34,288 nt of DNA. Origin: Candidatus Heimdallarchaeota archaeon. GTDB lineage: Archaea > Asgardarchaeota > Heimdallarchaeia > Hodarchaeales > Hodarchaeaceae. This document shows positions 15,634-34,288 of this stretch, in pieces; the stretch's first letter is position 1, and each line of letters starts with the position of its first letter. The notes beneath the pieces were generated by a model that did no database searches, was not told the DNA's origin, and worked only from the letters and a program-made list of their open reading frames with translations. The stretch lies in contig JBHLSH010000040.1 of assembly GCA_048881705.1 (NCBI GenBank), positions 1-34,288 on the forward strand, given 5' to 3'. The position numbers and the translations under genes are program-made.

Positions 15634-15870
15634 TTATCTTTCAAACTTTTTTCTATTGCTAGCTTTTTTGAGATCCTTAATAGAATCTCTTTGCAGTCGA
15701 GAATATGTTAATAGATCATCACGTTCCTTTAACTCTTCAAACGTTAGATCGCTGCCTTTATACATGATATTTTTGGCTCTTTCCTCAGAAACTTGAGCCA
15801 TCCTTTGTTTAAACTTCCGAATTCCATCCTTTACTCGGTTTTGATCCCGTAATGACTTGCTTCCCATCAA
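15634..15870 (-). CDS. Small basic helical hypothetical protein
   Basis: 78 aa, charge-rich. AGGAG Shine-Dalgarno upstream of TTG 15870/ATG 15867. Confidence 0.55.
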   Translation of the reverse strand: MMGSKSLRDQNRVKDGIRKFKQRMAQVSEERAKNIMYKGSDLTFEELKERDDLLTYSRLQRDSIKDLKKASNRKKFER

Positions 15871-15997
15871 TTGTACTCCTATTTATCGTAAATTTCTCGG
15901 TCATCCGAGATAATGAAGGATCCTGTCCGCCAACTACTTGTCTTCCCTATTTCTGTATTAAAATCTATTTGGCTTATAATCTCACCAATTCTACTCC

Positions 15998-16558
15998 CTA
16001 AACTGAGGTGAGTTCTCCTCGTTCGAAGGCCTCTAAAAAGGGGAGTAGACTGTAATCTTCGTTCTCTAGGATCTTTTTGAGCCTGGATTTGGTGACACGA
16101 ACACACTCAAGGGATTTTGGAAAAGGTAAGCTGGAACTACCTGTAACACGCCTGTAAGCTTCTGCTATTATTGCCCCCGCCCAAGTACCAAGCTTGTTCT
16201 TCTTCAAACGCTGAAAATCTCGTCTTAACGAAAGTTCTGTGACGATAAAATCCACTTCATTTTCAACCCTTCTTATGATCAAAGGATCAGTTTCCTTCAC
16301 AAAAGCCCATAAAATGTCCAAGGTTGCCTGGAGCGTCTGTACGCGTTCAATGTGATGACGCTGATATATCTGGCGTCTCTGATCTGACGAACGATTTAAT
16401 TTTAGTCGCGCCTTGATTTTTCTTATGCTTTTCACAGAAGTGACATATTTCTGGGCTAATTCATGATCGAGCATTGCGGAATAATTGCGTTTTACTCCGT
16501 TTTCAATCGTGGGTCTTGCCTGGAAATCACCATTTTCTTTGGGACTCATCCATATCAC
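15998..16558 (-). CDS. Basic helical hypothetical protein, possible TFIIB/cyclin-box-like C-terminal part
   Basis: 186 aa; a GGTGA SD favours ATG 16549. KNKLGTWAGAIIAEAYRR...VRVTKSRLKKIL loosely resembles a TFB cyclin-fold repeat. The family call is weak. Confidence 0.55.
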   Translation of the reverse strand: MIWMSPKENGDFQARPTIENGVKRNYSAMLDHELAQKYVTSVKSIRKIKARLKLNRSSDQRRQIYQRHHIERVQTLQATLDILWAFVKETDPLIIRRVENEVDFIVTELSLRRDFQRLKKNKLGTWAGAIIAEAYRRVTGSSSLPFPKSLECVRVTKSRLKKILENEDYSLLPFLEAFERGELTSV

Positions 16559-16620
16559 CTAGCGATCTTGGCCTGCTACTCTTGCAGAATCTGGTCATAA
16601 TTTCGTCACTGGGAGTTACA

Positions 16621-16818
16621 TCAGGTCCATCCGAGGACAATATGAACGAAAAACTCTCCTACATCTAGATCCGTCGATTGAGCTCGGCTGATAATGTTCT
16701 TTAGCTTAGATTCCTGTATTGCGCTTAAATGGGCCATAATGACACCATGATGTCGCCTGAGACGAGTAAGCAGCTGATGTTGGTTTATTGTATTTATGAG
16801 GGAAGAAGTATAGGACAT
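16621..16818 (-). CDS. Possible small hypothetical protein
   Basis: 65-aa 3' part (MSYTSSLINT...) of track ORF 16621..16962. The longer version overlaps the helicase start and is unlikely. Confidence 0.3.
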   Translation of the reverse strand: MSYTSSLINTINQHQLLTRLRRHHGVIMAHLSAIQESKLKNIISRAQSTDLDVGEFFVHIVLGWT

Positions 16819-33110: not shown

Positions 33111-33159
33111 TTCTCATAATACCTCTGTCTGAGTTTTCCCCCTTCCAATGGATGAGTCC

Positions 33160-33211
33160 TTTAAATAGGCGAAAGTGTAGAAGGGGTGATTCTAGTTTTC
33201 TACTATTTAAA
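33160..33211. promoter_or_regulatory. Pair of inverted TATA-like boxes in the divergent promoter
   Basis: TTTAAATAG (33160-33168) and CTATTTAAA (33203-33211) are perfect reverse complements, 34 bp apart. Confidence 0.4.
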
Positions 33212-33289
33212 CAACGCAAAGGATGGATAGCGGAATGGTCTGACTTCGAAAAAAGGAGTCAGCTGTAACTCAACCGAGGTAAACCAATC

Positions 33290-34288
33290 ATGGCAAAAAC
33301 ATCAGAAGATAAGGAACTGACCACACAAGGCATCATCGAAAATTTAGAGGGCGAAGAAAAGCCTGAACCTCCAACCAGAAAAAAATCTCCCTCGAAAGAA
33401 GAAGCCGAGTTTCTGGATACAATTAAGGGGATCGGCCCTACGACCAAAGAGCGTCTCCAAGGCGCTGGGTACGGTACAAAAGAAAGTATTGCCCTCGCGA
33501 CCCGTTCCCAGCTCAATCAAATCTCAGGGATCGCAGATAAGACCGCAGAACGTCTTATCAAAGAGGCTCGAGCCCAATTTGACTTGGGATTGAAGAAAGG
33601 CACGGTATTTGCAGAGGCAAGTGAAACCCGATTCCACCTTACAACTGGGGCGAGCGCCTTTGATGAGATGATTGGAGGCGGATTAGAGAGTGGTAGCATC
33701 GCTGAACTTGCAGGCGAAAACGGCTGTGGCAAAACCCAACTGTGTCATCAATTAGCGGTAAACAGTATCAAATACCTGGATAAAGATGTAATCTGGATTG
33801 ATACAGAGGGTACATTTCGTCACCGTAGGATCTCGCAGATGGCTGAAGCGCTGGGCCTAGATTCGATGAAGGTGTTGGACAGAATCACTGTCGGCCGCGC
33901 TTATAACTCAGAACATCAGATGGCTTTGACAGAGGAAGCTCTCACAACCGTTCCCAATATTGGCCTCATCATTGTCGACGGTCTGATGTCTCATTTTCGT
34001 TCGGAATTTGCAGGACGCAGCTCGCTGGCAGAACGACAACAACTCATTGGTAAACACCTTTCATTTATTGCAAAGCAGTCTGATATGATTAACTGCGTGG
34101 CAGTGATAACGAATCAAGTTTCAGCTAAACCTGACGGGTTACCCTTCGGCGATCCAAATGAACCGATTGGAGGTAATGTCGTAGGTCATACAGTTACCAG
34201 TCGTATTCGGCTGTACAAAGGAAAGGATCCTAAGCGAACAGCACATCTGAAAAAGAACCCAGAACTTCCTGATGGAAAGATTGAGTTT
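33290..34288 (+). CDS. radA: RadA/Rad51-family recombinase, divergent paralog (3' partial; absent from ORF track)
   Basis: Translated by hand: 333 open codons from ATG 33290 (GAGGT SD). HhH domain (IKGIGP, ISGIADKTA), GENGCGKT, IDTEGTF, IIVDG, HFRSEFAGRSSLAERQQ, TNQV, PIGGNVVGH. Confidence 0.93.
   Translation, partial: MAKTSEDKELTTQGIIENLEGEEKPEPPTRKKSPSKEEAEFLDTIKGIGPTTKERLQGAGYGTKESIALATRSQLNQISGIADKTAERLIKEARAQFDLGLKKGTVFAEASETRFHLTTGASAFDEMIGGGLESGSIAELAGENGCGKTQLCHQLAVNSIKYLDKDVIWIDTEGTFRHRRISQMAEALGLDSMKVLDRITVGRAYNSEHQMALTEEALTTVPNIGLIIVDGLMSHFRSEFAGRSSLAERQQLIGKHLSFIAKQSDMINCVAVITNQVSAKPDGLPFGDPNEPIGGNVVGHTVTSRIRLYKGKDPKRTAHLKKNPELPDGKIEF

Follow-up and report, generated by a model that had tools for sequence, protein, structure and literature searches.

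The window analysed here is the whole of contig C40 (34,288 nucleotides) of a Heimdallarchaeota genome of the genus Hodarchaeum (G000), and from 16.9 kb to its right edge (34.3 kb) it carries a conserved block of recombination-type and envelope genes. The block encodes a MrfA/Hrq1-type helicase, a catalytically dead Hef paralog, a dead Cas4-like Fe-S protein, a MmcB-like nuclease-fold protein, three RecA-fold proteins, TPR and zinc-ribbon proteins, four membrane proteins and a 1598-aa Ig-repeat protein. It runs on past the right edge, as proposed when the sequence was first annotated. The last 77 bp of C40 are identical to the first 77 bp of contig C101, on which radA ends (36 nt in) and is followed by the gene for an 861-aa HerA-like protein and then by that for a 602-aa XPD, all on the same strand. 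We conclude that the block is the larger part of a ~24-kb vertically inherited supercluster of the Heimdallarchaeia with about six transcription units. Its features, with strand and the evidence for each, are the following:

16906..19716 (+), helicase of the MrfA/Hrq1 (DUF1998) family with N-terminal TPR; Pfam DEAD, Helicase_C, WHD_HRQ1, MZB, TPR
19790..20902 (+), membrane protein of 370 aa with two N-terminal transmembrane (TM) segments and a long low-complexity tail; hydropathy, no Pfam family
20905..21408 (-), small TPR protein with a conserved C-terminal CxxC...CxxC zinc ribbon; weak Pfam TPR match, Cys alignment
21430..21939 (-), 169-aa MmcB-like protein of PD-(D/E)XK fold, signature gene of the cluster; alignment, Atlas structure match
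22009..22284 (+), small protein (91 aa) with four conserved Cys; alignment, conserved position
22289..23749 (+), catalytically dead Hef paralog, 486 aa; ortholog and motif comparison
23773..24522 (+), Cas4/AddB-like Fe-S protein; Pfam PDDEXK_1 and Cas_Cas4, PADLOC Cas4
24523..25422 (+), six-TM membrane protein; hydropathy and alignment, no Pfam family
25473..26207 (-), RadA-core paralog of 244 aa without helix-hairpin-helix (HhH) domain; Pfam Rad51, DnaB_C, KaiC
26179..26661 (-), degenerate RecA-fold protein of 160 aa without P-loop; AlphaFold2 (AF2) and Foldseek
26664..27776 (-), exported protein with N-terminal signal/TM segment and C-terminal TM anchor; hydropathy, no Pfam family
27742..28317 (-), YdjM/DUF1286-type membrane protein; Pfam YdjM 3.6e-6, below the curated cutoff
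28314..33110 (-), 1598-aa Ig-repeat surface protein; Pfam Big_13, Big_3_3, Big_3_5
33158..33213, divergent promoter region with two motif copies, 33158-33177 (-) for the envelope operon and 33194-33213 (+) for radA
16916-16935 (+), 21969-21988 (-) and 22017-22036 (+), further motif copies; genome scan
33290..34288 (+), cluster-specific full-length RadA paralog (HhH and core); Pfam Rad51, 209 bits
Contig C101, directly after radA and on the same strand, HerA/VirB4-fold protein of 861 aa; AF2 and Foldseek, Atlas
Contig C101, after the HerA-like gene and on the strand of radA, XPD of 602 aa; ortholog alignment, PDB profile

Neighbouring genes within the operons overlap by 4-35 nt, and no metabolic gene lies inside the block. 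The initial annotation had predicted such an uninterrupted set from the letters and open reading frames (ORFs) of the window, and its account of the gene content holds up. The two superfamily 2 (SF2) helicase homologs are recognised by Pfam and the MrfA match (16906-19716) and by Hef homology (22289-23749), the two PD-(D/E)XK proteins by PDDEXK_1/Cas4 (23773-24522) and by a structural lead (21430-21939), and the three RecA-family proteins by Pfam (33290-34288 and 25473-26207) or by AF2 and Foldseek (26179-26661). Conserved Cys motifs mark the predicted small Cys-rich proteins (22009-22284 and the tail of 20905-21408), hydropathy supports the four membrane proteins (19790-20902, 24523-25422, 26664-27776 and 27742-28317), and the Pfam Big domains confirm the giant Ig-repeat protein (28314-33110). 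TPR matches are present and weak both in the helicase N-terminus and in 20905-21408. Pfam gave no family for nine of the block ORFs scanned, nor for their long orthologs. The extent first given, 15634-34288, stands from 16906 onwards; judged by ortholog content, 15634-16905 lies outside the conserved cluster, and the three small ORFs of 15634-16962 have orthologs in the nearest genome (G001) alone among the fetched loci. Among these small ORFs, 15634-15870 (-) encodes 78 aa and belongs to a small repeated gene family with paralogs of 66-71% identity on C33 and C8 of the same genome; 16621-16962 (-) overlaps the 5' end of the helicase gene and may be spurious or much shorter.

The genes of the block stay together in related genomes. 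In 16 of the 21 Hodarchaeum genomes a stretch of ~12 kb on a single contig holds dead Hef, XPD and the cluster RadA. In the 40 kb around dead Hef, compared in ten genomes, nearly the whole set is found together in eight, despite ortholog identities of 35-70%, and a wider scan of 18 loci gave the same picture wherever the contig was long enough. The common order is helicase and 2-TM protein; TPR and 169-aa proteins; 4-Cys protein and dead Hef; XPD, (HerA-like) and RadA; the envelope operon of Ig, YdjM, exported, 160-aa and 244-aa proteins; and finally 6-TM and dead Cas4-like proteins. In G000 and G001 the whole segment from XPD to the Cas4-like gene is inverted, with a breakpoint that truncates dead Hef; the cluster has been kept together in both despite this inversion, and its flanks are unlike those of all other genomes. 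In the main Hodarchaeum lineage a LuxE/LuxC-like pair flanks the helicase side (L020:7231-10138, L019:3331-5890 and equivalents), and two uncharacterised proteins of 153 and 483 aa and a GIY-YIG nuclease flank the Cas4-like side. Neither the LuxC/LuxE-like pair nor the GIY-YIG-side genes are near the cluster in G000 or G001.

The linkage recurs in other Heimdallarchaeia. On short contigs of the sister family f2, which belongs to the same order, we find the 169-aa gene, XPD (41%), the HerA-like gene, a Hrq1-like helicase and an Ig fragment, and in three other families of the Heimdallarchaeia XPD-like and RadA-like genes are ~11-30 kb apart on one contig. In families f3 and f4 a RadA paralog, a 169-like protein, a DEAD helicase, a ~1050-aa HerA-like protein, XPD, a dead Hef-like protein and a small, Walker-A-positive RecA-like ATPase are encoded within ~40 kb, with giant surface proteins of 2121, 2646 and 1704 aa interspersed. 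The complete genome G028 has such genes on a single strand over ~32 kb, in the order uncharacterised 602-aa protein, RadA paralog, three uncharacterised proteins, 2121-aa Ig protein, two further uncharacterised proteins, 211-aa Walker-A-positive RecA-like ATPase, 169-like protein, 1051-aa HerA-like protein, DEAD helicase, 614-aa protein and 2646-aa TSP3-repeat protein; XPD then follows on the opposite strand. G033 repeats the operon logic of the window with XPD, a 1704-aa surface protein, three TM proteins and a 228-aa RecA-like ATPase. Homologs of seven core proteins thus adjoin giant surface-protein operons in other families, and a RecA-like ATPase closes the surface-protein operon in three families. 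The outcome against which the initial annotation had set its proposal, namely scattered orthologs with no linkage between envelope and RecA genes, is not what is seen either in the genus or in these families. The 169-aa signature family occurs in 46 of 251 Asgard genomes (14/16 in f1, 23/26 in f3, 5/5 in f4), with only two matches outside the Heimdallarchaeia.

Orthologs of the cluster RadA are 68-73% identical within the genus, against 53-55% for those of the sister family; this genome encodes two other full RadA genes (C82 and C1) as well as a RadB-like gene. In the RadA tree one clade (support 99) unites the cluster copies of the Hodarchaeales, and a second (99) those of f3/f4. The two cluster-linked clades stay unjoined in the free tree search; a single clade of all cluster-linked RadA is compatible with the data (p-AU 0.635 in the approximately unbiased (AU) test, the constrained tree being 4.3 log-likelihood units better than the free search), the joined group having been named only after the tree was seen. 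An integrated mobile element, for example a conjugative one with a VirB4-like protein and an adhesin, would account for the VirB4/HerA fold, the giant adhesin-like protein, the lineage-specific flanks and the rve integrase near the G028 locus. We regard it as scarcely credible, since 20 of the 21 Hodarchaeum genomes have the cluster and its divergence follows relatedness, the window contains no tRNA gene, integrase or terminal repeats, the GC content of the block equals that of its flanks, and the VirB4-like protein is ATP-dead. A system of defence against viruses or plasmids, built from DinG/XPD-like and Lhr/BrxH-like helicases, Cas4-like and HerA-like proteins and membrane sensors, is also highly unlikely. 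PADLOC matched XPD to the type IV-A DinG (8e-58), the helicase core to BrxHI (3e-68) and the Cas4-like protein to Cas4 (8.5e-8), and HerA-fold proteins do occur in the Sir2-HerA and DUF4297-HerA defence complexes. However, the helicase matches span generic SF2 cores only, and the members of nuclease type are dead. Moreover, nearly every genome of the genus has the cluster, in a single copy, and its RadA-paralog clades track family boundaries, unlike patchy defence islands. Likewise, the window has no tRNA, integrase, CRISPR array or other tandem repeats, and no Csf or Cas effector genes, such as stand beside DinG in type IV-A CRISPR-Cas, were found. We took the PADLOC matches as general likeness to helicases, Cas4 and DinG and rejected a known defence system.

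The promoters of the cluster have a 20-nt motif in common, with the consensus GATTTC-N4-TAT(A/T)TAAG, i.e. GATTTC-N4-TATATAAG. With leave-one-genome-out training, held-out cluster promoters scored a median of 11.2 bits versus 2.8 for 133 control promoters drawn from the same loci, and a motif trained on the Ig and RadA promoters alone reached a median of 10.1 bits on the promoters of the helicase (Hrq1), 370-aa membrane protein, 169-aa and 91-aa four-Cys genes, versus 1.5 for the controls. This genome contains 39 sites of at least 14 bits, seven of them on this 34-kb contig. Such sites lie directly upstream of the Ig operon, of radA and of the 169-aa gene, and copies just below 14 bits precede the 4-Cys/Hef unit and the helicase. 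When G000 and G001 were left out of training, the enrichment in the block was weaker (5 sites of at least 11 bits versus 1.2 expected), and all p-values for the motif overstate the case, the genomes being kin. A wider regulon in this genome was considered and rejected; the other strong sites lie inside genes or upstream of unrelated ones (beta-helix, BNR, radical SAM, a 1792-aa protein) and show no DNA-repair theme. The cluster is real, old and vertically inherited, and the motif suggests that it is probably one regulon. Two of the copies also bear on gene starts. Because the promoter-like sites 16916-16935 and 22017-22036 lie inside the annotated ORFs, the true starts of the helicase and of the 4-Cys protein are probably further downstream, at ATG 16963 and at 22081, and the two transcripts would have very short or absent leaders; ortholog alignments of both begin only from about residue 20-30. 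The 4-Cys gene is probably co-transcribed with the dead Hef paralog downstream. Outside the block, a copy of 16.5 bits (14904-14923), among the best, belongs to the gene of a 297-aa protein without Pfam family (13904-14797, -), called a longin/V4R fusion in the initial annotation. A homolog is found within the G008 cluster (L017:16795-17592), and it may be a further cluster member.

The helicase of 16906-19716 has its closest solved relative in B. subtilis YprA/MrfA (6znp; E 1e-61, residues 229-710). All hallmarks of MrfA/Hrq1 (SF2 core, winged helix and C-terminal Zn-binding MZB) are present, Walker A and DEVH are intact, and orthologs share 52-57% identity in 9 of the 10 fetched genomes. MrfA is the mitomycin repair factor A helicase (PMC7797055), and MmcB and MrfA have been reviewed together (PMC13705206). 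The likeness to the MrfA-MrfB system of B. subtilis (PMC7797055, PMC11194089) is limited to a helicase of the same DUF1998/MZB family: a MrfB DEDDh exonuclease is missing here, and the helicase has an N-terminal TPR extension and the gene of a membrane protein as partner. Contig C127 (L034, 1-3559) encodes a second, diverged version of part of the helicase C-terminus (57% identity) and, after it, a homolog of the 2-TM protein (45%). The divergence is close to that between species, so that this is either contamination from another Hodarchaeum (bin contamination 7.5%) or a partial duplicate. The cluster XPD has conserved Walker A, DEAH and four Fe-S Cys and matches archaeal XPD best in the PDB; a second XPD-family helicase is encoded elsewhere in this genome. 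In G008 (L017/L018) the cluster RadA has an in-frame TAG, XPD has an in-frame TGA and the helicase is split into ORFs of 595 and 312 aa, which points to decay, sequencing error or recoding.

In contrast to these helicases, three of the enzyme-like proteins are inactivated. The Hef paralog has Walker A (motif I), DEAH (II) and motif VI replaced in all orthologs, which share 35-43% identity and occur in 20 of the 21 Hodarchaeum genomes. Most of them are ~635 aa long, with a degenerate ERCC4-like C-terminus that lacks catalytic residues; this tail is cut off in G000 and G001. The canonical Hef of this genome is a separate 751-aa gene on contig C1. A 598-aa protein without Walker A motif beside XPD in f3 matches dead Hef by hhalign (95.8%). 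The order of an SF2 helicase fold and an ERCC4-like region in most orthologs resembles Hef, FANCM-FAAP24 and XPF-ERCC1, from which the protein differs by the loss of both helicase and nuclease motifs, by the lack of HhH2 and, in this genome, by the missing C-terminal domain. Inactivated domains serve as DNA-structure binders in XPF (dead helicase-like), FANCM (dead nuclease) and FAAP24/ERCC1. The Cas4-like protein retains its four Cys and QxxxY, while the catalytic D and ExK are replaced (GxPS and IQ[ST]) in all orthologs. The 861-aa protein has no Pfam family. It was modelled with a predicted local distance difference test (pLDDT) score of 69, its top Foldseek matches are all HerA/VirB4 (HerA, VirB4 and DndH at E ~1e-6), and the Atlas agrees (features 0.92, TM-score up to 0.70 by matched model). 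A search with the family HMM found nothing outside the genus at E 1e-5; profile-profile comparison by hhalign (94%) was the sole method to detect the ~1050-aa proteins of the other families. The 169-aa protein has invariant D51, E66, E68 and a CDxC...C motif, with Q or T at the usual Lys position. Its similarity to MmcB-like models (TM-score 0.75) comes from an Atlas predicted structure and is a lead only; the protein has no Pfam match, and its family profile found no match among PDB sequences. The small TPR protein (20905-21408) has orthologs in eight genomes.

Much of this inventory would suit a damage regulon, chiefly for crosslinks or bulky adducts, in which the DNA-type proteins repair the chromosome in the cytoplasm and the envelope operon is a co-regulated response, such as aggregation or envelope remodelling, that handles no DNA. 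MrfA, MmcB-like, Hef/FANCM-type and XPD proteins and RadA paralogs all fit families of crosslink or adduct repair, the common promoter motif suits one regulon, and in E. coli YdjM is a LexA-regulated membrane protein. We consider this a serious rival, possible if on the doubtful side; it leaves unexplained both the pairing of DNA-type and membrane proteins in three operons and the RecA-like ATPase that closes the surface operon in three families. Moreover, the MrfB-type exonuclease is absent, and the Hef, Cas4-like and HerA-like proteins are catalytically dead.

The two small RecA-fold proteins are encoded by genes that overlap by 29 nt. The 244-aa protein has intact and conserved Walker A and B motifs, and its profile matches RadA (6e-12), DMC1, RAD51D and RadB in the PDB, with KaiC and DnaB weak. 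It closes the envelope operon, and its homologs close analogous operons in f3 and f4 (hhalign 87-93%). For the 160-aa protein the family profile found nothing useful among PDB sequences; its AF2 model (pLDDT 78) has only RadA, RAD51 and DMC1 cores as top Foldseek matches (TMq 0.5-0.6). The complex of the two was modelled with an ipSAE of 0.79, versus 0.00 for the best of three controls. Of solved complexes 58 of 80 reach this mark, and of mismatched pairs 2 of 110. At least 79% of contacts are reproduced between runs, with a partner pLDDT of 79 or more. In the model the ATPase places its N-terminal strand against the sheet of the degenerate partner, much as members of the RadA/Rad51 family touch their neighbours; the score may therefore be due in part to resemblance to solved complexes. 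The two proteins are predicted to bind as a heterodimer and, on the strength of this model, are probably a Rad51-paralog-like mediator. To this extent the second proposal of the initial annotation, a putative proto-eukaryotic homologous-recombination mediator complex tethered at the membrane, finds partial support. The Rad51/RadA paralog mediators, archaeal RadB and aRadC and eukaryotic Rad55-Rad57, RAD51D-XRCC2 and Shu, offer the closest comparison: here, too, an HhH-less RecA core and a degenerate, ATP-dead partner accompany a RadA gene, and the predicted interface, an N-terminal strand of one on the sheet of the other, is alike. In contrast to these pairs, the pair described here ends a surface/membrane operon. 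The full-length cluster RadA, with intact Walker A and B, is transcribed divergently from that operon.

The envelope proteins are tied to the DNA-type proteins by gene order. The 2-TM protein gene lies directly 3' of the helicase, a pairing kept in 9 of the 10 fetched genomes; the 370-aa protein with the long tail is the only two-TM protein by hydropathy. The 6-TM gene is paired with the dead Cas4-like gene in 5 of 10 (G001, G011, G019, G006 and G004). The 6-TM protein has conserved HVxxH and PSxND motifs and a conserved acidic C-terminus, LEDLDL (window 25399-25419). TPR domains often bind acidic C-terminal peptides, and by this analogy the tail could be a membrane tether to one of the two TPR proteins of the cluster. 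The third operon, on the minus strand, comprises the Ig, YdjM, exported, 160-aa and 244-aa genes. Its first gene overlaps the next by 4 nt and encodes the Ig giant, with an N-terminal signal and a C-terminal TM anchor by hydropathy and with orthologs of 40-45% identity. The YdjM-type protein has conserved RHPLxHSP and SHLLLD motifs, and the exported protein (26664-27776) keeps its position in eight genomes. Thus, in each of three operons a membrane protein is encoded together with a DNA-type protein.

We tentatively favour, as somewhat short of an even chance, a vertically inherited, co-regulated and membrane-associated machine for recombination or repair. Since three operons each couple a DNA-type to a membrane protein, a complex assembled at the membrane appears most likely, and it is favoured further because the RecA-like ATPase closes the surface-protein operon in three families. 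The RadA paralog, the 244-aa ATPase with its ATP-dead partner, XPD (5'-3'), the MrfA/Hrq1 helicase (3'-5') and the MmcB-like protein would form a second, dedicated recombination and repair set. The dead Hef, Cas4-like and HerA/VirB4-fold proteins would most likely be DNA-structure binders or scaffolds, and the giant Ig, YdjM, single-pass exported, 6-TM and 2-TM proteins would make up an envelope module. Assembled at the cytoplasmic membrane, such a complex would act on DNA arriving or held at the envelope: the helicases and the nuclease would generate single-stranded DNA, loading of the RadA paralog would fall to the RecA-pair mediator, and cell contact or sensing to the surface protein. As the role of such a complex we lean towards DNA exchange or uptake between cells with subsequent recombination, comparable to the damage-induced Ups/Ced programme of the Sulfolobales. 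We infer the membrane assembly, the DNA substrate and the direction of any DNA movement, and by analogy DNA exchange between cells is plausible but unproven.

Several observations weigh against this reading. The cluster is split in two places in G016, and in G008 it is rearranged and the RecA pair is missing from the envelope operon. In G011, G012, G016 and G017 the HerA-like gene is located outside the cluster. The initial annotation had suggested inspecting the downstream flank for a HerA/VirB4 or FtsK motor, ComEC or DprA, and a HerA/VirB4-fold protein does follow radA directly; however, its P-loop position reads G-[ST]-x-x-[ST]-E, with no Walker A lysine in any ortholog, and the ~1050-aa f3/f4 homologs have no GK[ST] either. 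Pilin, type IV pilus ATPase, ComEC, DprA and FtsK genes were not seen in the window, on C101 or in the fetched loci, and nothing shows DNA transfer; on these points the first proposal of the initial annotation, an envelope-coupled machine for DNA uptake or exchange, is not supported. The membrane and exported families of Hodarchaeum gave no hhalign match to the f3/f4 proteins at equivalent positions; since these membrane and surface proteins are without detectable homology, the envelope linkage across families is one of position and protein type only. Because part of the synteny in the main Hodarchaeum lineage extends to the neighbouring LuxC/LuxE-like and GIY-YIG genes, some of the conservation is plain shared ancestry, and counts and p-values taken from related genomes overstate their independence. 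The absence of the RecA pair from the G008 operon and the lack of homology among membrane proteins across families, like the weak matches of the 244-aa protein to KaiC and DnaB, also speak for two separate modules, a repair cluster and a surface operon that includes a signalling ATPase pair of the KaiC/RadB type; history or shared regulation would have kept the two adjacent, and there would be no joint machine. This seems quite unlikely to us, as the adjacency has outlasted the inversion and the changes of flanks and recurs in f3 and f4 with different gene orders, and as the Ig operon and radA have one divergent promoter region with two motif copies.

Among systems known to move DNA, the machine that we favour comes closest to Ced of the Sulfolobales and Ted of the Thermoproteales, which import chromosomal DNA and work with Ups pili (PMC9905601). 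Like the cluster, they are chromosomal and vertically kept, and in them a VirB4/HerA-fold protein is accompanied by membrane proteins of the multi-pass and two-pass kinds; the repair genes Rad50 and a HerA-like helicase are further constituents of Ted loci, and the purpose proposed for Ced and Ted is recombinational repair with the DNA of another cell. Unlike in these systems, the HerA/VirB4-fold protein here does not qualify as a working ATPase, a 1598-aa Ig protein stands in place of pili, no pilin of the VirB2/CedA1 type was found, no small pilin-like ORF being conserved in the cluster, and the 6-TM protein, set beside the VirB6/CedA-like channels with their 6-7 TM helices, belongs to no Pfam family. 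Conversely, Ced and Ted lack the RadA paralog, XPD, MrfA helicase, dead Hef and Cas4-like proteins carried here. A more specific version, in which the cluster is a domesticated apparatus of the Heimdallarchaeia for cell-to-cell DNA exchange and recombination, is in our estimate unlikely. In it a giant, species-specific adhesin would join cells, DNA would be received by a membrane platform of multi-pass proteins around an ATP-dead ring of VirB4/HerA type, and its recombination would be the task of the RadA paralog with its mediator pair and dead XPF/FANCM-like scaffolds. The archaeal mre11-rad50-herA-nurA operon, which feeds RadA, is similar in that a HerA-fold gene lies beside nuclease and helicase genes. 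However, no Mre11, Rad50 or NurA Pfam families were found among the scanned ORFs of the window or C101, the HerA-like protein here is ATP-dead and 861 aa long with extra domains, and envelope genes are included.

The first 15.6 kb of the window are unrelated in content and encode an amidohydrolase, TauE, creatininase, a Ras-family GTPase, two proteins of beta-lactamase fold, an aldo-keto reductase and a methyltransferase. The Ras-family small GTPase (5542-6081, +; Pfam Ras 1.4e-40) belongs to the eukaryote-like signature proteins typical of Asgard archaea. The beta-lactamase-fold (serine hydrolase) genes (9037-10344, -, and 11350-12582, -) are paralogs around a GNAT acetyltransferase; G001 has a single matching region at the same place.

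Literature searches found no published description of this cluster. Extra RadA clades in the Heimdallarchaeia have been reported (Matsuo et al. 2025, PMC12722695), in an article whose searched passages yielded no gene context. With the cluster, one RadA paralog clade acquires a constant genomic setting, in which an envelope operon and dead scaffolds (Hef, Cas4-like and HerA-like) accompany a mediator-like pair. Current placements put the Hodarchaeales closest to eukaryotes, and the origins of three eukaryotic traits are unclear: specialised recombinase sets (Rad51 and Dmc1 with paralog mediators), inactivated-enzyme DNA sensors, and cell fusion or mating. Inactivated folds that sense DNA structure are known in eukaryotes from XPF, FANCM, FAAP24 and the Shu complex. 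This leads to the testable proposal that these archaea organise recombination at the membrane and possibly use it for DNA exchange; all parts are amenable to expression and assay in vitro. Should the function prove to be damage repair, a prokaryotic repair cluster with three long-conserved pseudoenzymes would still be unusual. If the cluster does prove to be an apparatus for exchange between cells, the closest relatives of eukaryotes would have in it a prokaryotic counterpart of a specialised "mating" recombinase set.

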